A stretch of DNA of 64,000 bases from an uncultured Actinomycetes bacterium (GTDB lineage Bacteria > Actinomycetota > Thermoleophilia > UBA2241), in assembly GCA_963709345.1 (NCBI GenBank), contig CAVPVX010000007.1:416001-480000 (forward strand), given 5' to 3'. The notes under the pieces were generated by a model. It did not search any database and was not told the DNA's origin. It saw only the letters and a program-made list of their open reading frames with translations. Position numbers and translations under genes: made by a program. How positions within the stretch are numbered: position 1 is the first letter of the stretch; each line of letters begins with the position of its first letter. Shown here piece after piece: positions 6,403 to 22,315 of the stretch.

Positions 6403-7746
6403 ATGCCCGCTGACGACCTGAAGCAGAAGACCGGCGACCTGATGCCGCAGCTGCGGGCCGAGCTCGAGAAGCTCGTGCGCCTGCCCTCCGTGGCCTTCCC
6501 TGACTTCCCTGAAGAGCCGGTGACGCAGGCCGGTGCGGCAGTCGCGCAGCTCCTGAGAGATGCCGGCCTGCCCGAGGTGCGCATGGTAGACGTGGCGCGC
6601 GCGCCGCAGGCGGTGTTCGGGCAGCGGCCGGCGCAGCCGGGCGCGCCCACCGTCCTGCTCTACGCGCACTACGACGTGCAGCCGGCGGGTCCGGCCGAAG
6701 CCTGGGCGAGCCCGCCCTTCGAGCCCACCGAGCGCGCCGGTCGCCTCTACGGCCGCGGCGCGGCCGACGACAAGAGCGGCGTCGTCATGCACGCCGGCGC
6801 GATCCTCGCGCTCGGCCCGGACTGCCCCGTGGGCATCAAGGTCCTGATCGAGGGCCAGGAGGAGAACGGCCAGGGCGGCATGGAGGAATTCGCGAGGGCG
6901 AATGCCGAGTTGCTCGCCGCCGACGTGATCGTCATCGCCGACGTCGGCAACTACGCCCTCGGCGTGCCCACGCTGACCACGTCGCTGCGGGGCATGGCCG
7001 CCCTCGACGTCGAGGTCGAGACCCTCGAGGGCGCCGTGCACAGCGGCATGTTCGGCGGTCCCGGCCCGGATGCGCTCATCGCCCTCACGCGCATGATCGC
7101 GACGCTGCACGACGACGCCGGCAACGCGGTCGTCCCCGGTCTCGACATCATCGAATACGACGGCGCCGACTACGACGAGTCCGCCTACCGCACCGACGCC
7201 GGCGTGCTGCCCGGCGTGGATCTCATCGGCAGCGGCACCGTCGCCCAGCGGCTCTACGGCAAGCCGTCGATCAGCGTGATCGGCATCGACACTCCGGCCG
7301 TCGACGGCGCCGCCAACGCGCTGATCCCGAAGGCCCGGGCGCGCGTCAGCGTGCGCCTCGCGCCCGGGCAACAGCCAGACGACGCCCAGGCGGCCATGAA
7401 GATACACCTTGAGGCGGCCGCCCCGTGGCACGTCCGGGTCAAGGTCACGCCGCAAGGCACCGGCGAGGGCTTCCTGGCTGCGACCGGCGGGCCCGGCTAC
7501 GCCGCCGCCGGCCGCGCCCTGGAGGCGGCCTTCGGCAGGCCGGTCGTCCACTACGGCCAAGGCGGCTCGATCCCGCTGGTCGCCGCGTTCCTCGAGGGCC
7601 AGCCGGGCACCGAGATGATCCTCTGGGGCTGTGAAGAGCCCCAGTGCAGAATCCACGCCCCCGACGAGAGCGTCGACCTCGCCGAGCTCGAGCGCTGCGT
7701 GCTCGCCGAGACGCTTTTCATCGCGGGGTTGGCCGAGACAGCTTGA
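6403..7746 (+). CDS. M20 family dipeptidase
   Basis: YAHYDVQP, YGRGAADDK, EGQEE, HSGMFGG, GGSIP, IHAPDES motifs. Confidence 0.92.
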   Translation: MPADDLKQKTGDLMPQLRAELEKLVRLPSVAFPDFPEEPVTQAGAAVAQLLRDAGLPEVRMVDVARAPQAVFGQRPAQPGAPTVLLYAHYDVQPAGPAEAWASPPFEPTERAGRLYGRGAADDKSGVVMHAGAILALGPDCPVGIKVLIEGQEENGQGGMEEFARANAELLAADVIVIADVGNYALGVPTLTTSLRGMAALDVEVETLEGAVHSGMFGGPGPDALIALTRMIATLHDDAGNAVVPGLDIIEYDGADYDESAYRTDAGVLPGVDLIGSGTVAQRLYGKPSISVIGIDTPAVDGAANALIPKARARVSVRLAPGQQPDDAQAAMKIHLEAAAPWHVRVKVTPQGTGEGFLAATGGPGYAAAGRALEAAFGRPVVHYGQGGSIPLVAAFLEGQPGTEMILWGCEEPQCRIHAPDESVDLAELERCVLAETLFIAGLAETA

Positions 7747-9359
7747 CCGGCAAGCGGAAAGACCGGCACGCCGCGCGCGACCGGCAGGCAGACCCGGGAG
7801 CTGCGGAGAAGCGACCGGTGGCGAGCGCCGCGGCCGCCGGCTCTCTGCGCTGGTGGTCGCTCGCCGGCCTGACGGCGGCGGCGGCGATCGTCTGGTTCGC
7901 CGCCGCCGGCATGCCCGTGGCGACCCCGCTGATCGCCGAGGACCTCGGCGGCTCGGTCACCGCTCTGCAGTGGGCGAACACCGCCTTCACGCTGATGTGC
8001 GGTGCGCTGGTCATCGCCGGCGGCCGCTTCGGCGACATCTTCGGCCGGCGGCGCGTGCTCGTCCTGGGGCTCGCCTTCTTCGCCGCCGCGTCGCTGATCG
8101 CAGCGCTGGCCCGCAGCCCGGAGATGCTGATCGCCGGCCGCGCCCTCATGGGCGTCGCCGCAGCCGCGATCCTCCCGGCGACGCTCGCCATCATCCCCAT
8201 CGAGTTCAGCGGCAAGGAGGAGGTGACGGCCTTCAGCGTGTGGATGGCCGTCGCGGGGGCGGGCCAGGCGCTGGCCCCCGCCGTCTCCGGCGCCCTGACC
8301 CAGGTCTTCGCCTGGCAGGCGATCTTCTGGGTCAACGTGCCGCTCTGCCTCGCCGCCTTCCTGCTCGTCCGGTCGACGACGCCGGAATCCCGCGACGAGG
8401 CCGCTCCGCACTCCATCGACGTGCCCGGCCTCCTGACGGTCGGCGGCGGGCTCATCGCGCTGATCTACGCGCTGAACGAGGGACCGGGCCGCGGATGGGC
8501 CTCTCCAGAGGTGCTGGGCGCGCTCGTGCTCGCCGCCGTGCTCCTGACCGCGTGCCTCCTCATCGAGCGCCATGTGCGCAACCCGCTGATCGACTTCGGC
8601 CTCTTCCGCCGCCGCTCCTTCAACGGCGCCCTCGCCGACAACTTCGTCTACAACTTCACGCTCGCCGGCACGATGTACGTGCTCGCACTGTATCTCGTGG
8701 AGGTGCGCCACTACGCCCCGTTCACCGCCGGTCTGCTCCTGCTGCCCTCCACCGTCGGGATGCTGCTGCTGCTACCCCTCGGCGCCCGGATGCAGTTGCG
8801 GACGGGTCCGCGCCTCCCCCTCGCCGCCGGCACGCTGATCATGGGCGCCGGCACCTTCATGGTGGGCTTTCTGACCACCTCGACGCCCTACTGGTGGTTC
8901 GCCGCCGGTCTGCTCATCCAGGGCATCGGCATCGGTCTCTTCTCCACGCCGCTCAGCGACACGGCGGTCGGCCTGGCGCCGCCGGCCGAGTCGGGAGCGG
9001 CTTCCGGCGTCTTCAAGATGAGCAGTATGGTCGGCGGGGCGTTCGGCATCGCCGTGCTCGCCGCACTCTACCGCGGGCTCCAGATCGCAATCGTGAAGGC
9101 CGACGTCGCCGCGGCCCACCTCACGCCGGCCCAGCAGTCGCAGGTGGACGACGCGTTCGGGAGCACCAGCCAGGCCGATGCGCTGTTCGCCAAGCTGCCA
9201 CCCGACGCTCAGACACGGGTCCTCGAAGCGGTGCGTGATGCCTTGGCCGGCGGCATCGGCGACTCGCTCAAGATCGCTGCCGTCTTCTCGCTGCTGGCGT
9301 TCGCCGCGGTGCTGTGGCTCGTGCCCAAGGGCATCCTGCACGCCGATCGCCACCGCTGA
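7743..9359 (+). CDS. MFS transporter, DHA2 (EmrB/QacA-like)
   Basis: GRFGDIFGRRR motif A, WQAIFWVNVP, about 14 TM; start uncertain (TTG 7743 or GTG 7818). Confidence 0.87.
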   Translation: MTGKRKDRHAARDRQADPGAAEKRPVASAAAAGSLRWWSLAGLTAAAAIVWFAAAGMPVATPLIAEDLGGSVTALQWANTAFTLMCGALVIAGGRFGDIFGRRRVLVLGLAFFAAASLIAALARSPEMLIAGRALMGVAAAAILPATLAIIPIEFSGKEEVTAFSVWMAVAGAGQALAPAVSGALTQVFAWQAIFWVNVPLCLAAFLLVRSTTPESRDEAAPHSIDVPGLLTVGGGLIALIYALNEGPGRGWASPEVLGALVLAAVLLTACLLIERHVRNPLIDFGLFRRRSFNGALADNFVYNFTLAGTMYVLALYLVEVRHYAPFTAGLLLLPSTVGMLLLLPLGARMQLRTGPRLPLAAGTLIMGAGTFMVGFLTTSTPYWWFAAGLLIQGIGIGLFSTPLSDTAVGLAPPAESGAASGVFKMSSMVGGAFGIAVLAALYRGLQIAIVKADVAAAHLTPAQQSQVDDAFGSTSQADALFAKLPPDAQTRVLEAVRDALAGGIGDSLKIAAVFSLLAFAAVLWLVPKGILHADRHR

Positions 9360-9429
9360 GCGGTACCTCGCCGCCCGCGCCCTGTCGTATACTGTTCGTC
9401 CGCTTCGGGCGCACGCCCTGAGGCTTCGC

Positions 9430-9522
9430 GGAGAGGTGTCCGAGTTGGCTTAAGGAGCGCGACTGGAAATCGCGTGGGCGGGGTTACCTGCCTCGAGGGT
9501 TCGAATCCCTCCCTCTCCGCCA
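9430..9522 (+). tRNA. tRNA-Ser(GGA)
   Basis: GGAGAGG/CCTCTCC stem, CGCGA-CT GGA AA-TCGCG anticodon arm, long variable arm, CCA. Confidence 0.97.
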
Positions 9523-9615
9523 CATCCACCAGCGCAGATGCAGCGGCCCCCACGACGCTTCAGAAGTCCTTCACAACTCCCCCGTATCCTTGCCTGACGG
9601 TGATGTCGGCGACCC

Positions 9616-10857
9616 ATGGGTCGCCTCGCGAAGGGAGCGGGCGTGGCATGCGAACGAGCGAACGAGGCGGCGCAGCAGCGCGCGCGCTGGATACGCTGGG
9701 GTATCCTGGGCGGCGTCCTCGTCGCCGTCACGGCGATCGTCACCGCCCATCGAATGGCCGTGGGGCCCGGCAAGCCGCCCGGCGTCGACGCCCTCTGCCC
9801 GCTCGGCGGCGTGGAGACGCTCTACTCACTGCTGACCGGCGCCGGGTTCATCCGGCAGACGGCCGCCAGCGCCGTGATCCTGCTCGTCGGCATGCTGCTC
9901 ATGGCCGTCGTCTACCGGCGCTCCTTCTGCGGGCACCTGTGCCCGCTGGGAGCGCTGCAGGGCATCTTCGGGGCGCTCGGGCGCAAGCTGATCAAGCGTC
10001 GTCGGACGATCCCGCCAGCCGTCGACCGCGTCGCCCGCTGGCTCAAATACGTCGTGCTCGTCTTCTTCGCCGTCTGGTCGTGGCAGGCGGCCGCGCTCGT
10101 GATGCGGCCCTACGACCCGTGGGTGGCCTGGGCGCACCTCACATCCGCCACGCTGTTCACCGAGTTCGGGATCGGGCTCGCGGTGCTGGTCGTGTCGCTC
10201 GCCGGCTCGCTGGTCTACGAGCGCTTCTTCTGCAAGTACCTCTGCCCCACCGGCGCCTTGCTCGGGCTGCTGGCCGGGATCAGCCTGTTCCGTATCCGCC
10301 GCGACCCCGCAACCTGCATCGACTGCGGTCTCTGCGACCGCGCCTGCCCCATGAACGTCGACGTCGCCACCGCCGCGACCGTCACCTCGTCCGAGTGCAT
10401 CTCCTGCAACGAGTGCGTCAACGTGTGTCCCGCCGCCGGCGCCCTCGAGGTCGTCACCGCCGGCAGCCGCAAGCCCTCGACCGTTCTGGCCGCCGGCATC
10501 GTGGTGGCGCTGATGGCCGGCATCATCGGCCTGACCACCCTGACCGGCGACTTCGAGTGGCAGAAGGAGAGAAACGGCGAAGGTCGCGGCGCAGGGCACG
10601 CCGGCCAGGGGGAAGGCCAAGGTCAGGGCGAGGGCCAGGGCCAGGGCGAGGGCCAGGGCGGAAGCGAGTCGGCCGTCAAGGGCTGGATGTCCTTCGCCGA
10701 CATCGCCGCGATGACGGGCATACCCCTCGCGGACTTCAGCGCCGAGTGGGGCGTGCCGGACGCGGACCTCGGCCTGCCGATGAAGGACATCAAGGACAGG
10801 TACGGCTTCACGCCGGAGGCCGTCCGCGCCTGGGTGGAGGAACGCCTTACGGAGTGA
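9616..10857 (+). CDS. Membrane 4Fe-4S binding protein (NapH/YccM-like polyferredoxin) with Gly/Gln linker and small C-terminal domain
   Basis: FCGHLCP and FCKYLCP motifs, CIDCGLCDRACP and CISCNECVNVCP, several TM segments. Confidence 0.88.
   Translation: MGRLAKGAGVACERANEAAQQRARWIRWGILGGVLVAVTAIVTAHRMAVGPGKPPGVDALCPLGGVETLYSLLTGAGFIRQTAASAVILLVGMLLMAVVYRRSFCGHLCPLGALQGIFGALGRKLIKRRRTIPPAVDRVARWLKYVVLVFFAVWSWQAAALVMRPYDPWVAWAHLTSATLFTEFGIGLAVLVVSLAGSLVYERFFCKYLCPTGALLGLLAGISLFRIRRDPATCIDCGLCDRACPMNVDVATAATVTSSECISCNECVNVCPAAGALEVVTAGSRKPSTVLAAGIVVALMAGIIGLTTLTGDFEWQKERNGEGRGAGHAGQGEGQGQGEGQGQGEGQGGSESAVKGWMSFADIAAMTGIPLADFSAEWGVPDADLGLPMKDIKDRYGFTPEAVRAWVEERLTE
10602..10661 (+). repeat. Short tandem repeat encoding a GQGEGQ linker
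   Basis: Repeated GGCCAGGGCGAG-like units in frame. Confidence 0.75.
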
Positions 10858-11024
10858 GGCGGCGGAGCGGTTGCATGCGGCGGTCTCGGCAATCCTTGAT
10901 CCGGCCAACCGGGCTCGGAGGCGCATGTTCAAGTCCCGGGGCGGCGCCGTCGGCACGGTAGAGCGGCTGCGCTTACTCGGGTAGTGTAGAGACCGACCCC
11001 TTGAGACTACCCCAGGAGTGGACC

Positions 11025-11444
11025 GTGACTACTCTCATGAACGTCGTCGCCGTCGTTCTCGTCGTGCTGGTCGTCCTCTTGACGGTGCCGAAGCTGATGA
11101 TGGCATCCAAGGCGCGGAGGATGAGGGGCAAGCCGGCGCCGGCGCCGCACAAAGCATCCGCCAAGAGGATCAAGTCGGGCGCCCGGACGATCCTGTACTT
11201 CCACACGACGACGTGCCGTGCGTGCAAGACCCAGGACCCCATCATGCGCAAGGTCCAGAAGCGCTATCCGGATGCCGTGTTCAAGATCGACACGGCGGCG
11301 AACCGGCCGGCCGCGTCCGCATACGGCGTCATGGGTGTGCCCTATCTCGCATTCATCGAGGGCGGGAAGCTGGTCTCGGCGCGATCGGGCGTGCAGCGGG
11401 AGGACGCGCTCGTCGGCTTTCTCTCCGGCAAGGGGAAGGCATAG
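11025..11444 (+). CDS. Membrane-anchored thioredoxin family protein
   Basis: N-terminal TM, CRAC motif, YGVMGVP cis-Pro loop; AGGAG RBS. Confidence 0.85.
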   Translation: MTTLMNVVAVVLVVLVVLLTVPKLMMASKARRMRGKPAPAPHKASAKRIKSGARTILYFHTTTCRACKTQDPIMRKVQKRYPDAVFKIDTAANRPAASAYGVMGVPYLAFIEGGKLVSARSGVQREDALVGFLSGKGKA

Positions 11445-11492: not shown

Positions 11493-11625
11493 GACATCGC
11501 CGCGATGACCGGCTTCCCCTCGCCGACTTCGGCCTGCTGATGACGGACAACTGGAACCGGTACGGCTTCACGCGAGAGGTCGACCGCGCCTGGGTGGAGG
11601 AGCGCATGGCGGAGTGAGGCGGCGG
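11493..11625 (+). pseudogene. Degenerate duplicate of the 3' end of the 4Fe-4S protein gene (10699-10865)
   Basis: Shares GACATCGCCGCGATGAC, GGTACGGCTTCACGC, CGCGCCTGGGTGGAGGA and GGAGTGAGGCGGCGG with the intact gene; has an internal deletion. Confidence 0.8.
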
Positions 11626-11690
11626 GGGGCCGCGTGCTACACTACGCGTCCGCGGCCCCTGCCTCGCGCGCACGGCGGCCGCCGCCTCGC

Positions 11691-11785
<95 letters not shown>

Positions 11786-12002: not shown

Positions 12003-13067
12003 GTGCCGCAGCCCTTCCGTCCCCCGCCACCGCCACACTGGTGCGCCGCCCAGCGACCCACGGAGCACCGCAGGTCAGAGCTGCTCACGCAGATGCGCGC
12101 CGGCCTCACGGCTCGCCACTACAGCCGCCGCACCGAAGAGGTCTACTGCCACTGGGTGCGCCGGTACGTGCGCTTCCACCAGCTGCGCCACCCGGCGGAG
12201 CTCGGCGACGAGGAGATCAACGCCTTCCTCACGCACCTCGCCGTCACCGAGCACGTCAGCGCCTCGACCCAGACGCAGGCGCTCAGCGCGCTGCTCTTCC
12301 TCTACCGCCAGGTGCTCGGGCGCGAGGTCGGCGAGCTCGACCTGGTGCGCGCGAACAAGCCGCGGCACCTGCCGGTCGTGCTCACGCGCGAGGAGGTGCG
12401 CCGGCTGCTCGCTGGGCTCGAGGGCGACCCGCGGCTGGTGGCCGCGCTGCTCTACGGCTCCGGCCTGCGCCTCATGGAGGCGCTGCGCCTGCGCGTCTGC
12501 GACCTCGAGCCGGGGCGCGGCGAGCTCCTCGTGCGCAGCGGCAAGGGCGGCCGCGACCGCGTCACCATGCTGCCACGCTCGCTGCAGCCGGCCCTCGAAG
12601 CCCAGCTCGCGCGAGGGCGCGCCCTGCACGAACGCGATCTCGCCGCGGGCTGGGGGCGCGTCGAGCTCCCCGGAGCCCTGGCGCGCAAGTACCCCAAGGC
12701 GCCCTGGGAGTGGCGCTGGCAGTGGGTCTTCCCGCAGCAGCGCCGCTGGCGCAACCGGGAGAACGGCGAGGAGGGGCGCCACCACATCCACGAGACCATC
12801 GTGCAGCGCGCCGTGACCGCCGCCGTGCGCCGCGCCGAGATCGACAAGCACGCCACCTGCCACACCCTGCGCCACTCGTTCGCGACCCACCTGCTCGAGG
12901 ACGGCTACGACATCCGCACGATCCAGGAGTTGCTCGGCCACAAGGACGTGCGCACGACGATGATCTACGCGCACGTGCTGAACCGTGGCGGCCAGGGCGT
13001 GCGCAGCCCGATCGACGACCTCGTCGGGGAAAGGCGGTCTGCCTTTCGCGCACCTTCAGGCTCGTGA
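12003..13067 (+). CDS. intI: Integron integrase (tyrosine recombinase, IntI family)
   Basis: RHYSRRTE..Y..W, SASTQ.QA, LLYGSGLRLME, GKGGRDR, integron-specific insertion (LPGALARKYP...WQWVFP...RHHIHE), HTLRHSFATHLLE, LGH, TTMIY; all catalytic residues present; start uncertain. Confidence 0.96.
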   Translation: MPQPFRPPPPPHWCAAQRPTEHRRSELLTQMRAGLTARHYSRRTEEVYCHWVRRYVRFHQLRHPAELGDEEINAFLTHLAVTEHVSASTQTQALSALLFLYRQVLGREVGELDLVRANKPRHLPVVLTREEVRRLLAGLEGDPRLVAALLYGSGLRLMEALRLRVCDLEPGRGELLVRSGKGGRDRVTMLPRSLQPALEAQLARGRALHERDLAAGWGRVELPGALARKYPKAPWEWRWQWVFPQQRRWRNRENGEEGRHHIHETIVQRAVTAAVRRAEIDKHATCHTLRHSFATHLLEDGYDIRTIQELLGHKDVRTTMIYAHVLNRGGQGVRSPIDDLVGERRSAFRAPSGS

Positions 13068-13117
13068 TAGCGTCATATACAGAAAGGGAGAGTCTGTGTC
13101 GATGACAAACGCAGACT

Positions 13118-13135
13118 GTCTAATAGTAGTTAGCC
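13118..13135 (+). other. attI-like recombination site
   Basis: GTCTAAT-AGTA-GTTAGCC simple site directly before the first cassette; GTTAGCCCGA is complementary to TCGGGCTAAC at the end of cassette 1. Confidence 0.75.
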
Positions 13136-13148
13136 CGAACTCCGGGGT

Positions 13149-13778
13149 GTGATTGCTGTGTACCTCGCCAAACCTGAGATCCCGACCGGCCAGGGAGTCT
13201 TGGTCTTGCACTCGTGGTGGGGCTTGAACGGGTTCTTCCGCGACCTGTGCGACCGGCTGGCATCTGACGGCTTCGTCGCACTCGCGGCGGACCTCTACGA
13301 CGGCAAGACCGCGAGCACGATCGGGGACGCAAAGGCCCTACGTGCCGAGGCCGGCGCCTCCAGGAGGGAGTCCGCCTACCGCTACCTCATCCGCATGATC
13401 GGCGAGCTCGAGTCGCAGGCCTCTGGAGACGTTGCCCTGCTCGGCTTCTCGATGGGTGGACACTGGGCCTACTGGCTCTCTCGGCGCCCTGAGCTTCCCA
13501 TCTCCAAGACGGCGACGTTCTACGCCGCACGCGACGGGGACTACTCGACAAGCCGCTCGGCCTTTCTTGCTCACTTCGCCGAGACCGATGAATGGGTGTC
13601 AGACGCCGGCGTGCTGAGACTCGAGCGTAGCTTGGAGAAGGCGGGTCGCGAGCATACGTTCCATACCTACGAAGGCACCGGGCACTGGTTCTTCGAGTCC
13701 GACAGGCCGGAGTACGACCCTGAGGCCGCGGCGCTCGCATGGGAGAGGACGGTTGCCTTCCTGCGGCGGTCGGGCTAA
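13149..13778 (+). CDS. Dienelactone hydrolase family protein (cassette 1)
   Basis: HSWWGL, GFSMGG, HFAETD, GHWFFE motifs; stop codon lies inside the attC R'' box. Confidence 0.88.
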   Translation: MIAVYLAKPEIPTGQGVLVLHSWWGLNGFFRDLCDRLASDGFVALAADLYDGKTASTIGDAKALRAEAGASRRESAYRYLIRMIGELESQASGDVALLGFSMGGHWAYWLSRRPELPISKTATFYAARDGDYSTSRSAFLAHFAETDEWVSDAGVLRLERSLEKAGREHTFHTYEGTGHWFFESDRPEYDPEAAALAWERTVAFLRRSG

Positions 13779-13859
13779 CAAGCACATCAACCTGATGCGC
13801 CGAAGGGCCGAGATGGACTGGGAGCGCACTTCGCACAGGTTATGTGCCGAGCGTTCGGC
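13773..13859 (+). other. attC site 1
   Basis: R'' GGCTAAC, L arm CACAT(C)AACCTG(A)TGCG pairs with CGCACAGGTTATGTG leaving two extrahelical bases, R' GTTCGGC. Confidence 0.9.
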
Positions 13860-13930
13860 GTAGCAGGTTCGCAGCGTCTTCCGTAGGCGAGGCGGGGTAG
13901 AATCCTTGTCGTGATGTCTCAGGGATGTGA

Positions 13931-14146
13931 GTGATGTCGGTCGTGTTTCGCATCGAGCTCGAGCGCGAGGCTGACGGGCGCTGGATCGCCGAGGTGGTCG
14001 AGTTGCCCGGAGTGCTCGCCTACGGCTCGAGCCAGGACGACGCCATCGCTCGCGTGCAGGCCCTTGCCCTGCGCGTCGTCGCCGACCGGCTCGAGAACGA
14101 AGAGGCCGGCCGCGAGTACCTGAACATCTCCTTTGCCGCTGCGTGA
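13931..14146 (+). CDS. HicB-family antitoxin (cassette 2)
   Basis: IELEREADGRWIAEVVELPGVLAYG is typical of short HicB; own TAGAAT -10 at 13898-13903. Confidence 0.87.
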   Translation: MMSVVFRIELEREADGRWIAEVVELPGVLAYGSSQDDAIARVQALALRVVADRLENEEAGREYLNISFAAA

Positions 14147-14355
14147 GCGACTGGCCCAGCACCCGCACCAAGCTCGTTCTCGCGGCTCTCCTGCGCATCG
14201 GCTGGACGGTCGAGCGCCAGACCGGTTCCCACAAGATCCTCTCGCGCCCCGGCTGGCCCAACCTCGTCTTCGCCTTCCACGACCGCGAGGAGATCGGCCC
14301 GCGGATGCTCGCGCGCATCGCCAAGCACAGCGGCCTGAGGCCCGAGGACCTGTGA
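14143..14355 (+). CDS. HicA-family mRNA interferase toxin (cassette 2)
   Basis: GW.VERQTGSH motif, FHDREEIGPRMLARIAK; GTGA overlap with the antitoxin. Confidence 0.9.
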   Translation: MSDWPSTRTKLVLAALLRIGWTVERQTGSHKILSRPGWPNLVFAFHDREEIGPRMLARIAKHSGLRPEDL

Positions 14356-14365
14356 TGTTGGGCAC

Positions 14366-14455
14366 GCCGAACAAGCGGATCAAGCTGGCTCGCCGCGGCG
14401 CCGGCGACCTCACGGGAGGTCGGCGCGCTCGCAGCTTATCGGCGGTGCGTTGAGC
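14366..14455 (+). other. attC site 2
   Basis: R'' GCCGAAC, GAT(C)AAGCTG pairs with CAGCTTATC, inner GC hairpin, R' GTTGAGC. Confidence 0.87.
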
Positions 14456-14482
14456 GTACTCGTTGCACGTAGTCGGGGGGCA

Positions 14483-14857
14483 ATGATGAACCAGGCGCTG
14501 CTCTATGTTGCATCCGGCCTCACCGGCATATGGGGTGTGGCGCATCTGTTCGCCACCAAAGGGGCGGTTGCGGACTTCGGCGATATCATGCCTGACAACC
14601 GTCGCATCATCACCATGGAATGGATCGCTGAGGGCGTAGCCCTGATCTCCACGGCCGCGTTCGTTGCAGTGGCAGCCGCGATCCAGCCGGGATCCGACGT
14701 CTCGTCGGCGGTGTTCGCCGTGGCAATCGGCACCCTCACCACACTCGCCGTTGTCTCAATGTTTACGGGATTCCGCGTCCACTTCTTGCCCTATCGGCTC
14801 TGCCCGTTCATCTTCGGGCTGTCGGCGGTACTGATTGCATGGGGCGCGTGGTTCTAG
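14483..14857 (+). CDS. Hypothetical 4-TM membrane protein (cassette 3)
   Basis: Hydrophobic ORF filling the space between attC2 and attC3; GGGGG RBS. Confidence 0.75.
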   Translation: MMNQALLYVASGLTGIWGVAHLFATKGAVADFGDIMPDNRRIITMEWIAEGVALISTAAFVAVAAAIQPGSDVSSAVFAVAIGTLTTLAVVSMFTGFRVHFLPYRLCPFIFGLSAVLIAWGAWF

Positions 14858-14883
14858 GAGTCTAGATCCGCCGCTCGGGAGAC

Positions 14884-14987
14884 GCCCAACAAGCGTTTCG
14901 ACACTGACAAGACTCGGCGTTCGAGCTACGCTCGACCAGACGAGGCCAAACGCCTCGCCCTGCAGGTCAAACGCAAACACGTTAGGC
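14884..14987 (+). other. attC site 3
   Basis: R'' GCCCAAC, GCGTTT(C)GAC(A)CTG pairs with CAGGTCAAACGC, R' GTTAGGC. Confidence 0.87.
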
Positions 14988-15049
14988 ACAACCCTGCCAC
15001 CCTCACTGCGGGCCTCGCCCCTTGCCGTCGCGTCGTGGCGCATCCGGAT

Positions 15050-15108
15050 GTAAAGCGTCCTTGACTTCTCTCAATCCCGTGTGCATTATGGTGTCAAGCG
15101 AGCTTTAC
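15050..15108 (+). promoter_or_regulatory. Sigma70-type promoter with two flanking operator palindromes (cassette 4)
   Basis: TTGACT-17 bp-CATTAT with TG extension; operators GTAAAG-N4-CTTGAC (15050-15065) and GTCAAG-N4-CTTTAC (15093-15108). Confidence 0.75.
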
Positions 15109-15122
15109 ACCAAGGGGTTTCG

Positions 15123-15323
15123 ATGCAGAACCGTGTGCGTGAGCTTCGTCTGGTCGCCAACCTTCGGCAGGAGGATCTCGCCGAACGCGTTGGTGTCAGC
15201 CGCCAGACGATCATCTCCATAGAGGGCGGGCGCTACAACCCATCGCTCGAGCTCGCTTGGAAGCTGTCCCGGACTCTGTCGGTGTCCATCGAGGATCTGT
15301 TCCAGTTTGGGGAGGTGAAGTAG
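15123..15323 (+). CDS. XRE-family HTH transcriptional regulator (cassette 4)
   Basis: QEDLAERVGVSRQTIISIEGGRYNPSLELA. Confidence 0.92.
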   Translation: MQNRVRELRLVANLRQEDLAERVGVSRQTIISIEGGRYNPSLELAWKLSRTLSVSIEDLFQFGEVK

Positions 15324-15704
15324 GTGCGAACTGTGCGCAACACCATGCTCCTTGCGATTGCGCTGGCCGCTCCATACGTCTTGGTCGGTCTTCTCTCGAA
15401 TGGCCCCTACGCGTCTCGCGTTCTCCAAGGCGGGCTGGTCCTCTTGATAGTGGTTGCCGCGGTCTCGGTTTGGATGTGGCGGCAAGGGCCACGCATCGAC
15501 CGCGAGCAAGATGAGCGGGAGCGGCTGATCCTCTATCGCTCCGCGAGCTTCACGCTCTTGGTAACGGCCGTTGCACTGCAGACCTACTGGGCTATGCGCT
15601 TTGCCGCCGATGGGAACGCTGGAGACGATGTCTTCTGGCTGCTCGTGGTCTTCTGGGGCACCTTCGGGGGTTCGTACGCGTACAACCGGATTCGCGTCAG
15701 GTGA
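15324..15704 (+). CDS. Hypothetical membrane protein (DUF2178-like, cassette 4)
   Basis: 4 TM segments with a central DERE motif, typical partner of small XRE regulators. Confidence 0.7.
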   Translation: MRTVRNTMLLAIALAAPYVLVGLLSNGPYASRVLQGGLVLLIVVAAVSVWMWRQGPRIDREQDERERLILYRSASFTLLVTAVALQTYWAMRFAADGNAGDDVFWLLVVFWGTFGGSYAYNRIRVR

Positions 15705-15707
15705 GGG

Positions 15708-15923
15708 GTGAATGTGATGTCTGAGAAGCGCTCGGACGCAGACGAGTCGAAGTCAGCTGACTCGATGGGCAACTGGATCGGCATCGGGGCGGGCTTGGGA
15801 GTCGCCATTGGGGTGATCTACGGCAACATTGGCCTTGGTACGGCGCTCGGGGCATGCCTCGGGGCGATCATCGGCGCAGCGGAACAGGCACGCGTCTCGA
15901 AGCGCGATCCGGGGGACAAGTAG
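15708..15923 (+). CDS. Small glycine-zipper membrane protein (cassette 4)
   Basis: GIGAGLGVAIG...GLGTALGACLGAIIG; GAGGGG RBS. Confidence 0.65.
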   Translation: MNVMSEKRSDADESKSADSMGNWIGIGAGLGVAIGVIYGNIGLGTALGACLGAIIGAAEQARVSKRDPGDK

Positions 15924-15936
15924 TAGTGACTGGTGT

Positions 15937-15996
15937 GCCTGACAATGAGATCAACCCGACTCACTTCGCTCGCGGGTTATCTCAAACACGTTAGCC
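15937..15996 (+). other. attC site 4 (short, variant R'')
   Basis: R'' GCCTGAC, TGAGAT(C)AACCCG pairs with CGGGTTATCTCA, R' GTTAGCC. Confidence 0.85.
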
Positions 15997-16002
15997 GGAC
16001 GC

Positions 16003-16638
16003 TCAACCAGCCGAAGCGGTCCTCGTCCTCACCCAGGCGGCAAGTTGCTCTTCGCTCAGCTCACCAGCAGCCAGGCCCAGCATCACCGTGACGACCTCGC
16101 CCTCGTCTGCCTCCAGTTCCACTCCGTTGAGCTCCAGGAACACGGCCATGGTGATGAAGGCGATGCGCTTGTTGCCGTCTTGGAACAGATGCCCGGTCAC
16201 GAGGCCGTGACCGTGGGCTGCCGCCAGCTCGGCGAGGTCGGCGTCAGGCCGGTAGGCTCTGCGCTGCAGGGGCCGGGCCAAGGCCGCCTCGAGCCCGTGC
16301 TCGTTGCGCAGGCCGGGCATGCCGCCTTGCTCGCGGATGAGGTCGAACTGCACCGCCTCCACGACCAGGCGGTCGATCCAGCGCGGCGCTTCGCCTCGCG
16401 GCTCCACCGGCTGCTTGGCCAGTTCTCGCAGGGCGCTGCGGTAGCGCCCTGCCACCTTGCCGGCGATGGCGAGCGCCTCCTCGACCGCAGGGTCGTAGGG
16501 CGTGAGCAGGATGCCGCGCTCGGTCTCGGCGGCGAGCACCGTGTCGCCCGCCGCGAGGTGCAGGCGCTCGGCCATGTCCTTGGGGAGCGTGGCGCTGATC
16601 GAGCCGCCGGCCTGGCGGAGCTTCAGTCCGCGGGTCAT
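16003..16638 (-). CDS. AbrB/MazE-type antitoxin fused in frame to Doc (Fic) toxin (cassette 5, antisense)
   Basis: N-part LKLRQAGGSISATLPK...LTPYDP...ALRELAK; C-part HLFQDGNKR Doc motif; CAG at 16413-16411 where a stop is expected. Confidence 0.82.
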   Translation of the reverse strand: MTRGLKLRQAGGSISATLPKDMAERLHLAAGDTVLAAETERGILLTPYDPAVEEALAIAGKVAGRYRSALRELAKQPVEPRGEAPRWIDRLVVEAVQFDLIREQGGMPGLRNEHGLEAALARPLQRRAYRPDADLAELAAAHGHGLVTGHLFQDGNKRIAFITMAVFLELNGVELEADEGEVVTVMLGLAAGELSEEQLAAWVRTRTASAG

Positions 16639-17194
16639 GGTGCTGAACAGGCTCAACATGATCATCGGCGCCTTCTTCAGCGAGTGCGGCACCGACCTCC
16701 TCGGACGCATCGCGCAGCTGGACTCGCGACTCGGTGAGGTGAGAGGCGACCTCGTGGCGACGTCCGCGTGGCGGCCCGCTGCCTGCGCGCGCGCCAAACG
16801 CGCCTTTCGTGCGCACGCACCGGTCATCGATCTGAGTGCCGACGACCTTACCGGCCTGCGTGACCGCCTCGACGGCGAGAAGTCCTACCTGCTCGGTCTG
16901 ATCGGCAACCAGGCGTTGCTGGAGCACGAGACGTTCACGGACCTGCTTTGGGCCGTGACCCACGTGGCCGAGGAGCTGGAGGCGCGGGACGACCTCGAGA
17001 CACTGCCGGCGGCCGATGCCGAACACCTCGCCGGCGACGTCGAACGAGTCTACACGCTGCTCGGCGTGCAGTGGCTCGACTACCTGCGCCACCTGCAGAC
17101 GCAGTACCCGTTCCTGTTCTCGTTGGCCGTGCGGACCGATCCGCTGGACCCCGATGCCAGCGTGACCGTCTCCGGTGAGGCCGCACTCCCGTAG
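16637..17194 (+). pseudogene. Probably 5'-truncated conserved hypothetical protein
   Basis: LNMIIGAFFSE...NQALLEHETFTDLLWAV...YPFLFSLAVR resembles the C-terminal part of a conserved anaerobe protein; ATG overlaps the antitoxin ATG head to head. Confidence 0.55.
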
Positions 17195-17206: not shown

Positions 17207-17410
17207 GTGGTCGGGCTGCTCACACTGCTCGTGATCCCGCCGAAAGCGCCGATGCCCGCCAAGTCGGCGAAGATGAAGGGCAAGCCGGCAGGCCGCGTCC
17301 GCCTACGGCGTCATGGGTGTGCCCTATCTCGCAGTCATCGAGGGCGGGAAGCTCGTCTCGGCGACGTCCGGCGTACGGCGCGAAGCGACGATCACGGGCT
17401 TCCCGCCCGG
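17207..17410 (+). pseudogene. Internally deleted copy of the thioredoxin gene at 11025-11444
   Basis: Near-identical GGCCGCGTCCGC.TACGGCGTCATGGGTGTGCCCTATCTCGCA.TCATCGAGGGCGGGAAGCT; the CxxC segment is deleted. Confidence 0.82.
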
Positions 17411-18695: not shown

Positions 18696-18909
18696 CTCAG
18701 CCTCCATCGCGATCTCGGCCGCCGCCACGGACACGCTCCGTACTGTCGGCAACGAGCCGGTCTGACTCAAGCGGGCCGATGTCTGCCCTGCGACCCGGCG
18801 CCCGTGCTTCCGCCGCAACGGCGCGACTTGCAGCCGGGACAGGATCCATCATAGTATGCAATTGTATTATTTGAACCTTCCGTTTCATGCAATCAACTGA
18901 GGTGACTCC

Positions 18910-19626
18910 ATGACGCAGCCGGAGACCGTGCCCGCCTTGCTCGCCGAGCTTGAGGGCGCCTCCGCCGAACATGTGCTCGCCGACGCCGCCAAACGCTTCG
19001 CTGGGCGCGTGGCCTTCGCCTCCTCCCTGGGGCTTGAGGATCAGGTCCTCACACACATGATCGCCGAGGCCGAGCTTGAGATCCCGATCTTCACACTCGA
19101 CACCGGTCGCCTCTACCCCGAGACCTACGACCTCATCGACCGCACCAGCAAGCGGTACGGCCTGCGGATCGACGTGCACTTCCCCGACGCTGCCGAGGTC
19201 GAGGAGATGGTGGCGCAGAACGGCATCAACCTCTTCCGAGACAGCATCGAGGCGCGCAAGCTCTGTTGCGGCCTGCGCAAGGTGAAGCCGCTGCGGCGCG
19301 CCCAGGCGGAGCTCGACGCCTGGATCTGCGGTCTGCGCAGCGGCCAGGGCGCAACGCGCCAGAAGGTCGAGCCGGCCGAGTGGGACGACGGCGCCGGCAT
19401 CGTCAAGATCAACCCGCTGGCAGCTTGGGACGAAGCGGGCGTATGGGACTACGTCCGCGCCCACGACGTGCCCTACAACCCGCTGCACGACGCCGGCTTC
19501 CCGAGCATCGGCTGCGCGCCCTGCACGCGTGCCGTCCCCGAGGGCGAGGACGCGCGCTCCGGGCGCTGGTGGTGGGAGAGCGCCGAGCACCGCGAGTGCG
19601 GACTGCATCACAGGAGCGCCTCATGA
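18910..19626 (+). CDS. cysH: Adenylylsulfate (APS) reductase, thioredoxin-dependent
   Basis: [31 protein letters not shown]; Fe-S cysteines indicate APS rather than PAPS reductase. Confidence 0.92.
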
Positions 19627-20504
19627 ACCAGATCGAGACCCTCGAAGCCAAGAGCGTCCACATCCTGCGCGAGGCGTACCGCTCGCTCGGCAACGTCTGC
19701 ATGCTCTGGTCGATCGGCAAAGACAGCACCGTGCTCCTGCACCTCGCGCGCAAGGCCTTCTTCGGCCACGTGCCGATCCCGCTGGTCCACATCGACACGG
19801 CCTACAAGATGCCGGAGATGATCGAGTACCGTGACAGGCTGGCGCTCGAGTGGCGCCTCAACCTGGTGGTCGGCCAGAACCGCAAGGCGCTCGAGGAGAA
19901 GGCGACCTTCCCCGACGGCAACGTCGACCGCATCACCTGCTGCCGCAACCTCAAGACGATGGCGCTCAAGCACACCCTCTCAGGCGAGTGGCCGCGGCTG
20001 CGCATGGACCACACACTCGGCAAGCTCGTCGAGGACGAGGATCTCTCACCGTACACCGGCGTGATCGTCGGCGTGCGCGCGGACGAAGAGGGTTCGCGCT
20101 CCAAGGAGCGCTACTTCTCGCCACGCGACGTGGAGAACGACTGGAACGTCGATGACCAGCCGCCGGAGCTCTGGCGGTACTTCAAGACCGACTTCGAGCC
20201 CGGCACGCACGTGCGCGTACACCCGCTGCTCGACTGGACCGAGCTCAACGTGTGGGAGTACATCGAGCGCGAGAGCATCCCGGTGACGTCGCTCTACTTC
20301 GACGACGGCACCGGCACCCGCTGCCGCTCCCTGGGCTGCGAGCCGTGCACGACTCCAGTGCAGTCGACGGCGACCAACGTCGCCGAGATCATCGAAGAGC
20401 TGCGCACCGGCAAGTTCAGCAACATCGCCGAGCGCAGCGGCCGCGCCCAGGACAAGGACGACGGCGGTGGCCTGGAGTCACTGCGTCGCGGGGGGTACAT
20501 GTGA
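19623..20504 (+). CDS. cysD: Sulfate adenylyltransferase subunit 2
   Basis: [39 protein letters not shown]. Confidence 0.93.
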
Positions 20505-22315
20505 TCCCGTCAGCCGAGAACATCCCCGCAGGGAAGCCGGCACCGGTCTTCGTCTCTCCCGACCTGGAGCGCATGGACATCGTCGCCGTCGGTCACGTCG
20601 ACCACGGCAAGAGCACCGTCATCGGCCGGCTCATGGCCGACACCGGGTCGCTGCCCGACGGCAAGCTCGACCAGGTCAAGGCGATGTGCAAGATCAACGC
20701 CCGCCCGTTCGAGTACGCCTTCCTGCTCGACGCGCTCAAGAACGAGCAGGCGCAGGGCATCACCATCGACACGGCGCGCTGCTTCTTCAACACACCCAAG
20801 CGCCACTACATCATCCACGACGCCCCCGGCCACGTGGAGTTCCTCAAGAACATGATCACCGGCGCCTCGCGCGCCCAGGCCGCGCTGCTCGTGATCGACG
20901 CCAAGGAGGGGGTGCGCGAGAACTCCAAGCGCCACGGCTACATCCTCTCGATGCTCGGCATCCGCCAGATCTCGGTGCTGGTCAACAAGATGGACCTGCT
21001 GGACTGGGACCAGGCGGCGTTCGATGCGATCAGGCACGAGTACGCCGACTTCCTCGGCCGCCTCGGCGTACACCCGCTCAGCTTCGTCCCGGTCAGCGCG
21101 CGCGACGGCGCCAACATCGTGCACAGGGCCGTCGAGGCGCCGTGGTACGACGGCCCCACCGTGCTTGAGCAGGTCGAGGACTTCAAGCGTCTCGACGACG
21201 ACCTCGACAGGCCGTTCCGCATGCCGCTCCAGGACGTCTACAAGTTCACCGCGGCGGGCGACGACCGGCGCATCTTCGTCGGCACCGTCGAGACCGGCCG
21301 CATCCGGCCCGGCGACAACGTCGTCTTCTTGCCGTCGGGCAAACACTCGACGGTGAGGACGATCGAGGCCCTCTCCGGGCCACGACCGGACGAAGCGTAT
21401 TCCGGCCAGGCAGCGGGCCTGACCCTCGACACGCAGGTCTACGCGAAGCCGGGCGAGATGATGGTCCGCGCCGACGAGCCCGCGCCGTTGATCGCCACAC
21501 GCCTGCGCGCCAACGTCTTCTGGATGGGGACGGCGCCGCTGATCCGCGGCCGGCGCTACGTGCTGCGCATGGGCGCCGCCCGCGTGCCCGTCGAGCTCGA
21601 GTCCGTGATGAGCGTGCTCGACGAGCAGGAACTGCAGTCGGTGACCGGCGCGGCGCAAGTCGAGCGCCACGCCGTCGCCGAGGTGATCTTCCGCGCCACG
21701 CGCCCGGTGGCCTTCGACGCCGCCGACACGCTCGAGCCGACCTCGCGCTTCGTGATCGTCCACGGCTGGGACACGGCCGGCTGCGGCATCGCCCTCGAGG
21801 CGCTGCCCGAGGCGGCCGCGAGCGGCGAGGGAGAGCGGCGCTTCGGCGGCGGCGATGTGACCGAAGAGCAGCGCGCCGCGCGCTACGGCCACGGCGGCAA
21901 GGCGATCGTCTTCGTCGGCGAGTCCGGCGCGGACGCGCGCGACGTCGCCGCGGCACTCGAGCGCCGCGCGTTCGACCGCGGCGTGCACTCGTACTGCCTC
22001 ACCGCCACGGACCTGGGTGAGGACGAGGACGTCCTCGGCCGCGACGCGCAGCTCGGCCGCCTCGGCGAGATCGCCTGGGCGATGACCGACGCCGGCATCG
22101 TCCTGGTGGCGGCCCTCGGCGACATGGACCGCTTCGACCTCGAGCGCCTGCGCACTCTGGCCGCGCCGCACGAGGTCTTCGTGATCGGGCGCGGCGACGG
22201 CGGCGACCTCGGCGCGGACCTGGATCTGCCCGCCGGCCTGGGCGTCGAGGCGGCGGCGGAGGAGGCGCTCCGCGCCCTGACCACCGCCGGCGTGCTGCCG
22301 CAGCCCGGGCGCTAG
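20501..22315 (+). CDS. cysN: Sulfate adenylyltransferase subunit 1 with degenerate C-terminal APS-kinase-like domain
   Basis: [23 protein letters not shown] GTPase motifs. Confidence 0.92.

Follow-up and report, generated by a model that had tools for sequence, protein, structure and literature searches.

Evidence for a complete chromosomal inverted-integrase integron native to an uncultured family of Thermoleophilia (Actinomycetota)

Introduction

Integrons in which the integrase gene is read in the same direction as its cassettes, the so-called inverted-integrase integrons, were reportedly treated by Boucher et al. in 2007 for the Treponema denticola type and other non-proteobacterial lineages. 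In this arrangement intI and the cassettes occupy one strand, the attachment site attI is found 3' of intI and the array of cassettes with their attC sites follows downstream. Sedentary chromosomal integrons of Vibrio, whose integrase VchIntIA is known from the structure 2a3v, and the class 1 integrons with their integrase IntI1 are, on the other hand, divergent in this respect. Here, we report the analysis of a 64-kb stretch of DNA from an uncultured actinobacterium of soil or sediment (positions 416001-480000 of contig C7 in the source genome G000, that is G000:C7:416001-480000, hereafter the window), which very probably holds a complete, chromosomal and co-oriented integron that is native to an uncultured family of the Thermoleophilia, a class of the Actinomycetota. 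The element itself is of the known inverted-integrase kind, the layout of which has been described (PMC13323075), and its interest lies in the host, since such elements are common in a family of Actinobacteria without cultured members, at odds with the customary view of the phylum as devoid of them.

That integrons are nearly absent from Actinobacteria has been stated repeatedly, and the pattern is unexplained. One source gives no complete integron in the complete RefSeq genomes of Actinobacteria (PMC9024848), and another speaks of a 'virtual absence' of integrons in Actinomycetota (PMC13323075, 2026). Actinobacteriota are counted among the phyla with detected integrons in a third source (PMC8618304), and they are not named among the phyla listed in a fourth (10.1101/2022.02.06.479319). 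No description of native integrons in Thermoleophilia or Coriobacteriia was found in the accessible literature, the supplementary tables of which may list such integrons from metagenome-assembled genomes (MAGs).

Compared with the inverted-integrase integrons, the window element has the same layout throughout and differs in host phylum; the likeness is one of layout. With the Vibrio integrons it shares an integrase alignable over its full length, a chromosomal location and reversed toxin-antitoxin cassettes, and relatives of the window element have large arrays whose attC sites vary little in length, most of them having 87 or 90 nt. Unlike the Vibrio type, intI is co-oriented with the array, the four attC sites are 48-66% alike and the chromosomal position is not conserved. 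IntI1, represented here by a class 1 integron (L105), belongs to the same enzyme family (53% identity to the window IntI over residues 23-340) and follows the same attI/attC logic, but class 1 integrons have a divergent intI, reside on plasmids or transposons and carry resistance genes, none of which applies to the window element. In the following, L designates loci around related intI genes, G genomes, C contigs of the source genome, f families and X metagenome runs.

Results

The integron occupies positions 12003-16638 of the window and consists of intI, attI, four attC sites and a truncated fifth cassette. The intI gene (12003..13067, forward strand) is apparently intact and encodes a protein of 354 aa, which matches the NCBIfam profile TIGR02249 'integron integrase' with 463.9 bits against a cut-off of 265 and along positions 1-315 of 315; IntI alone exceeds this cut-off in the source genome. 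Both PF13495 and PF00589 were found among its Pfam domains. Among solved structures, the integron integrase of V. cholerae (2a3v) matches best (E 6.8e-93, residues 25-338 aligned to 3-318), and this alignment spans the integron-specific extra domain (...KYPKAPWEWRWQWVFPQQ...RHHIHET...). The motifs LRLME, GKGG, HTLRHSFATHLL (HTLRHSF), LGH and IYAHV are identical or conservatively changed relative to 2a3v and presumably hold the catalytic Arg, Lys, His-x-x-Arg, His and Tyr.

The attI site (13065..13135, forward strand) was delimited by alignment of the DNA that follows intI and has its crossover at 13129|13130. It is made up of two direct repeats, TCATATACAGA at 13073-13083 and ACAAACGCAGA at 13105-13115, then CTGTCTAATAGTA, and then the R box GTTAGCC at 13129-13135. 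Across an alignment of the post-intI DNA from 22 loci, the repeats TCWTAYRCAG(A), the element ACTGYCTA-ATnnTw and GTTAG were common to at least nine species, and similarity among the loci was lost after GTTAGS, i.e. at the crossover. In blastn, the similarity extends to 13134 for L020 and to 13133 for L021, the two closest relatives. A TGnTAnnnT motif is found at 13065-13073, about 60 nt before the crossover, and the same spacing is kept where the intI stop codon is elsewhere; it was seen in L018, L020, L021, L023, L024, L026 and L046 as well as on contigs C5 and C7 of the source genome. The motif was spotted by eye and may act as cassette promoter, of the '-10 only' type of actinobacteria; a simple sigma-70 scan gave no match there. 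We know of no description of an attI with two direct repeats and a conserved TGnTAnnnT. In one related locus (L033, 9056-9699) the antitoxin-Doc module of cassette 5 is located between the intI stop codon and the attI repeats in the orientation of intI; placed before attI it is not a cassette there, and it might stabilise the platform.

All four attC sites are situated less than 3 kb from intI and were assigned to the minus strand, which is the recombining bottom strand. They are attC1 (13773..13859), with one extrahelical G in its L stem; attC2 (14366..14455), of the common 90-nt type; attC3 (14884..14987), for which the minimum-energy fold of the bottom strand has a paired R, a spacer without pairing and an L stem from which a T and a G bulge out; and attC4 (15937..15996), a site of only 60 nt, likewise seen in its fold, in which R'' is GAC instead of AAC. 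Read along the bottom strand, a site generally has first an R box with AAC as its last bases and then a short spacer that stays unpaired; an L stem of about 12 pairs, from which one G bulges, a variable loop and GTT follow. Crossovers at G|TT fall at 13129|13130 (attI), 13853|13854, 14449|14450, 14981|14982 and 15990|15991. Sites with 90-92% identity to attC2 are present in L010/L044 and L062.

A covariance model, R1, was built from the bottom strands of these four sites. Applied to the whole window with filters off, R1 returned the four sites at 65-89 bits (81.5, 88.7, 69.6 and 65.1 bits for attC1 to attC4, respectively), and its next match scored 15.2 bits (E 0.22); this result follows from the construction of the model, and the real test of R1 lies in loci on which it was not trained. 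In 91 such loci around related intI genes, amounting to 853,258 bases, R1 found 175 sites at E≤0.01. Seven of the 91 loci are the same DNA in duplicate, and the best 150 of the 175 matches comprise 140 distinct sequences. When these were aligned, 92.4% of the cells paired, vs 26-39% with the partners slid by 1-3 columns; the alignment was fitted to R1 and thereby favours the structure, a bias which the slid controls carry equally. The L stem was 97% paired, both sides had changed in 9 of its 12 pairs, and the extrahelical G was present in 134 of the 140 sequences. Site lengths clustered at 90 nt (50 sites) and 87 nt (38 sites). A search of the window with Rfam returned tRNAs and chance matches only and no attC family. 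R1 gave no match on the class 1 integron L105, by which the intended control for divergent orientation failed and R1 proved to be lineage-specific.

The best 150 of the 175 attC matches were all located downstream of the intI stop codon, with the bottom strand opposite intI, and none was found upstream, where about 8 kb of DNA were present in some 40 loci. A single match among the 175, at 8042-8126 in L043 and of lower score, was on the other strand. Co-orientation of intI and array is accordingly a property of the whole clade, which includes cyanobacterial loci, a locus labelled Neomarinimicrobiota (L084) and the Gemmatirosa megaplasmid.

The cassette boundaries carry the footprint of circular insertion. 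Cassette 1 starts with GTTAGCCCGA, which is complementary to its own end, TCGGGCTAAC, in 10/10 bases, and the corresponding figures for cassettes 2 to 4 are 9/9, 8/9 and 9/10. The comparison was widened to 94 cassettes of which the two ends are known, three belonging to the window, and the 7 bases that follow GTT were set against the extension of the cassette's own R''; the mean match to its complement was 5.49/7, with a score of at least 6 in 69 of the 94. The control, in which R'' was compared with the physically adjacent R', gave a mean of 3.34/7 and a score of at least 6 in only 4 of 143. A match between the start of a cassette and its own end is what recombination of a circular cassette at G|TT predicts. 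Cassettes also differ in their place between arrays: the Doc cassette is the fifth in the window and the first in L024, and it is found again in an integrase-less array on contig C2.

Metagenomic contigs offered a view of the same boundaries. Twenty runs, with no RNA run among them, share part of the stretch, each at most 12% of its sampled words, and the contigs of four runs were compared with it at 90% likeness. In run X4, a 548-nt contig (depth 42.5) joins 13852 back to 13129 with a step of 724 bases and 76 bases on the shorter side, which is cassette 1 exactly closed at the predicted G|TT. As none of 150 other attC sites exceeds 83% identity to attC1, the attC that precedes cassette 1 in this contig is most likely its own. 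Either an excised circle or a tandem duplication, in a relative of about 93% identity, would account for the junction. All four runs, which are from soil or sediment, contributed contigs that cover the HicAB cassette (13928-14509) with at least 90% identity; cassettes 3 and 4 had no contig cover in these runs, which says nothing about them.

An earlier note on this DNA had proposed a complete integron, made up of an intact IntI with the integron-specific insertion, an attI-like site at its 3' end and four attC hairpins whose cassettes have complementary starts and ends. The profile score and the alignment through the insertion in 2a3v bear out the first of these parts, and the conservation of the attI repeats and GTTAG across species, with similarity stopping at the crossover, the second. 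The hairpins are corroborated by the untrained matches and by covariation, and the complementarity was found exactly as noted and recurs as a general trend in the 94 cassettes, so that the proposal of a complete integron stands. The same note described intI and array as co-oriented, which holds in the window and across the clade, and placed the end of the integron at 16640, close to 16638, where the homology of cassette 5 actually stops.

A quick tree of IntI with 85 rows was composed of relatives of the query, IntI1, the Gemmatirosa sequence and, as outgroup, the source genome's own Xer protein; 19 rows were trimmed at a terminal stop, L044, L051 and L078 were dropped for internal stops, and duplicate loci were left out. 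The window IntI fell within a clade labelled Thermoleophilia or Actinomycetota with a support of 98 in the Shimodaira-Hasegawa-like approximate likelihood ratio test (SH-aLRT), and sequences labelled Coriobacteriia formed a separate cluster. The outgroup branch had a length of 10, for which reason the root is unreliable and no lineage is named as basal. The nearest IntI proteins, 70-91% identical, were all from genomes labelled Thermoleophilia or Actinomycetota, and relatives at 57-66% identity were from MAGs labelled Desulfuromonadales, cyanobacteria and Gemmatimonadota. The nearest plasmid-borne relative was that of the Gemmatirosa megaplasmid at 57% identity, with none closer among plasmid records. 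Three loci titled Deltaproteobacteria or Eubacteriales (L044, L036 and L069) have an IntI that sits inside actinobacterial clades, and the DNA of L044 (G023:C279) is a contig of a genome placed in the genus of the window; these titles look like label errors.

The distribution of IntI and attC was followed from genus to phylum. With TIGR02249 at E 1e-30, an integrase was found in 20 of 36 species of the same genus and in 0/24 genomes of other families drawn alongside. In 400 genomes of the class besides G000, at E 1e-40, the positives were confined to the family of the window (f1, 43/79) and two others (f4, 14/61; f6, 1/24), and none was found in the 236 genomes of the nine other class families sampled (f2, 0/79; f3, 0/76; f5, 0/28; f7, 0/44; f8-f12, 0/9). 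A sample of 400 genomes from the phylum, again besides G000 and at E 1e-40, gave 24 positives, mostly from a small number of families (f20, 6/10; f22, 7/21); two of these, G482 and G543, are unpublished genomes, without which the count is 22/398. R1 was run on genomes of the class that are at least 90% complete, with matches in f1 (21/25), f4 (5/24) and f6 (2/17) and none in f2 (0/25), f3 (0/23), f5 (0/12), f7 (0/11) and f8-f10 (0/3), in agreement with the distribution of IntI. Altogether 77 of the 88 other f1 genomes held attC sites, with counts up to at least 49 per genome, and in G015 the attC sites run for about 27 kb next to intI. The occurrence of IntI in 43/79 and of attC in 77/88 of family f1 supports the element as lineage-resident at the family level.

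Eight genomes of the same genus are labelled as Thermoleophilia (six), Actinomycetes (one) and Deltaproteobacteria (one). The source assembly comprises 3.11 Mb in 11 contigs, with 98% completeness and 1.45% contamination, and contig C7 has a length of 777,446 bases. GC content is about 0.70 across the window and dips to 0.61-0.65 at 13-16 kb. At third codon positions (GC3) it is 0.938 for intI, 0.89-0.92 for the flanking host genes and 0.75-0.79 for cassettes 3 and 4. The flanks at 6432-10865 and 18899-22306 align in order with one stretch of the same-genus genome G027 at 80-90% identity, which places the integron between host genes of the genus and makes a chimeric join unlikely. An actinomycetotal host, as the earlier note had assumed, is thus supported by the labels of same-genus genomes and by synteny on both flanks, and its remark on the host-like codon usage of intI agrees with the GC3 values. 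The suggestion that the integron is resident holds at the family level, with the qualification that its place in the chromosome varies between species. WhiB, an actinobacterial marker which some deep actinobacterial classes do not have, was set aside as a phylum marker, and its absence is neither counted against Actinomycetota nor taken as support.

Four cassettes are complete, and all of these lie on the forward strand. Cassette 1 (13130..13853, 724 bp) encodes a protein of the dienelactone hydrolase family at 13149-13778 (PF01738, E 8.6e-36). Cassette 2 (13854..14449, 596 bp) holds an open reading frame (ORF) at 13931-14146 and a HicA toxin gene at 14143-14355 (PF07927, E 2.6e-12); the first ORF is called HicB-like from gene order alone, having no match in Pfam, NCBIfam or PDB. 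Cassette 3 (14450..14981, 532 bp) was seen in the ORF list to encode a predicted membrane protein of no known family (14483-14857, GC3 0.776), without a match in Pfam, NCBIfam or PADLOC. Cassette 4 (14982..15990, 1009 bp) encodes an XRE-type helix-turn-helix (HTH) regulator at 15123-15323 (PF01381, E 3.8e-15), a membrane protein at 15324-15704 and a glycine-zipper protein at 15708-15923, and the only promoter-like site in the region is found within it at 15061-15089, where the scan found 1 vs 0.4 expected. Truncated cassette 5 (15991..16638, minus strand) contains an AbrB/MazE-type antitoxin (TIGR02609, PF04014) and a Doc toxin (TIGR01550, PF02661) in a single ORF of 211 aa at 16003-16638. Over 15990-16638 it shares 86% identity with the cassette that comes first in L024 and is followed there by an attC; in the window the similarity stops at the start codon of the antitoxin, no attC comes after it and the promoter region is missing. 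PADLOC, run on nine cassette proteins, gave generic HTH and Doc-like matches only and no defence system.

Integron DNA is not restricted to the window. A further 11 attC sites were found with R1 in the source genome, namely five at C2:215713-219943, two at C5:11720-13150 and four at C7:764924-772517. A complete second copy of the Doc cassette with antitoxin and toxin as two separate genes is present at C2:220001-220651. At C5:10988-11112 the final ~48 nt of intI recur together with attI at 91% identity, the body of intI being gone and toxin-antitoxin cassettes following, and a third attI-like site (83%), again without intI, is located at C7:768345-768402. By eye, from their translations, these additional loci on C2, C5 and C7 are rich in toxin-antitoxin cassettes of Phd/YefM-like, HigBA-like and ParE-like type.

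On its left the integron adjoins a tRNA-Ser(cga) gene (11691..11782, forward strand; ARAGORN, Rfam tRNA 58.5 bits). No transposase was found among the scanned ORFs of 9-19.6 kb, using the ORF list and Pfam. In G027 the same tRNA gene follows the same ferredoxin-like gene and is itself followed by different genes; the interval from tRNA-Ser(cga) to cysH (18910) is 7.1 kb in the window and 4.8 kb, with other genes, in G027. This interval is hypervariable within the genus. When 53 further genomes of the genus were searched at the DNA level, a match extending over the tRNA, the spacer and the 5' end of intI was obtained from G021 alone (80% identity); in the other genomes listed, the tRNA and intI matches were distant from each other or on separate contigs. 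Directly after its tRNA-Ser, G021 moreover retains 68 bp of the intI 3' end as a relic. Diverged direct duplicates (71-84%) bracket the integron, at 10761-10921 vs 11521-11759 and at 11076-11428 vs 17228-17410; duplicated are the ferredoxin-like gene at its 3' end (84%), tRNA-Ser in a degenerate form (74%) and part of a thioredoxin gene (71-81%). The first duplicated flank is shared with G090 at the same 760-bp spacing. With low confidence, the duplicates may indicate that the segment arrived with its flanks from a congener, or else an old duplication.

Discussion

In the mechanism that we propose, IntI, as a tyrosine recombinase with an extra domain, would recognise attC sites as single-stranded hairpins of the bottom strand. 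Recombination between two attC sites would excise cassettes as circles, and the circles would be inserted at attI after the G of GTTAGCC, directly downstream of intI. Most cassettes are probably promoterless and would be read from the intI side, by read-through or from the candidate -10 element in attI, while toxin-antitoxin and regulator cassettes would carry their own promoters. The same IntI could act in trans on the other arrays of the genome, two of which have attI but no intI. Activity of IntI at present, the mode of cassette expression and action in trans are inferred in this scheme.

Integrons are called sedentary when they are chromosomal without a link to transposon or plasmid, have large arrays of highly similar attC sites and occupy the same site across related species. 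The window element is chromosomal in this sense, being embedded in a 777-kb contig between host flanks syntenic with G027. Its own array is small and its attC sites are dissimilar, and it is among its relatives that large arrays are found, as in G015 with at least 49 matches. Its site is shared across the junction of tRNA and intI 5' end by G021 only. The hallmarks of the mobile integrons of classes 1-5, a link to a transposon or plasmid and a short array of resistance genes, are lacking.

Several observations weigh against a complete and native integron. With four attC sites the array is small, and it is cut distally, its last cassette being truncated; in that cassette the stop codon which follows ...RELAK in relatives has been lost, so that antitoxin and Doc are fused. 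The attC sites of the window are mutually only 48-66% alike, and their support comes from R1, a model trained on the lineage's own sites. The promoter scan detected no sigma-70-like promoter between intI and cassette 1. A LexA-type box has the form GAACN4GTTC, and none with at most one mismatch was found in the 300 nt upstream of the window intI (8/78 loci overall had one), which leaves SOS control of intI through such a box unsupported. The junction in run X4 would be explained equally well by a tandem duplicate, or by an adjacent cassette whose attC is nearly identical, and it belongs to a relative and not to this strain. Split or stop-containing intI genes are found in congeners, split in G001, G008, G012, G018 and G019 and affected also in G021 and G023; with so many broken copies, loss or decay of the integrase is common in the lineage. 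The position of the integron is not conserved either: in the 91 related loci, none of four flanking proteins was found at 8 kb or less from intI, and about 900 kb separate intI from the ferredoxin-like flank in G027. As for the host, its class name rests on the labels of same-genus records, and WhiB (PF02467) was not found in the 98%-complete source genome; in the control, Corynebacterium alone gave a match.

Some of these points would fit a real integron that is now a frozen relic in this strain, with IntI not expressed or inactive and the array decaying, a reading we regard as unlikely though worth keeping in mind. The state of cassette 5, which has neither attC nor promoter and in which antitoxin and toxin are fused by stop loss, would be explained by it, as would an array of four attC sites where relatives have up to at least 49 matches per genome, two other attI platforms in the genome without intI, the split intI of five congeners and the lack of a promoter-like site before cassette 1. 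Against decay speaks the integrase itself, for the intI frame is whole, all motifs shared with 2a3v are kept and a GC3 of 0.94 does not point to relaxed selection. At the cassette boundaries of the window 10/10, 9/9, 8/9 and 9/10 bases match, and the cassette content is wholly different from that of the closest relatives L020 and L021, which indicates turnover since the species split.

A recent acquisition from another phylum or from a mobile element, by which the integron would not be native, seems very improbable to us. The hypervariable interval beside a tRNA gene, the diverged duplicates of flanking host sequence that bracket the locus, the differing chromosomal positions between species and the IntI relatives at 57-66% in Desulfuromonadales-, cyanobacteria- and Gemmatimonadota-labelled MAGs could all be taken in its favour. 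The nearest IntI proteins (70-91%) are, on the contrary, all labelled Thermoleophilia or Actinomycetota and belong to a clade with an SH-aLRT of 98, IntI occurs in 43/79 species of the family and attC in 77/88 genomes, the GC3 of intI matches that of host genes, and no plasmid record comes closer than 57%. The bracketing duplicates are 81-84% alike, a divergence equal to that between species of the genus, so that any transfer would have been from a congener. An artefact of assembly or binning, in which a piece of a foreign integron was joined into an actinobacterial contig, is scarcely credible. The assembly does consist of 11 contigs with an estimated contamination of 1.45%, and no sequencing run was found with more than 12% of the sampled words of the stretch. 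The window is located at 416-480 kb of a 777-kb contig, however, and both of its sides are syntenic in the same order with G027; the same type of integron is present in most genomes of the family, in some of them on contigs of 1-2 Mb, and 11 more attC sites and two attI copies are found at three other loci of the same genome. A complete co-oriented integron native to this family thus remains by far the reading that we favour.

The spread of IntI and attC through family and phylum makes it seem that the gap in the record of integrons is due to which Actinobacteria were cultured and completed, and is not a property of the phylum. We tentatively extend this, with somewhat less than even confidence, to an old and largely inherited integron system in the whole Thermoleophilia family and several other uncultured actinobacterial families, with large arrays, several attI platforms per genome and a single IntI acting in trans. 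A lineage-specific attC model such as R1 is usable for assigning cassettes from soils and sediments to their hosts, and the family offers a natural system for asking why other Actinobacteria are without integrons. If the wider proposal is true, the Actinomycetota would be a major unrecognised reservoir of cassettes in soils and sediments, and not a phylum that lacks integrons.

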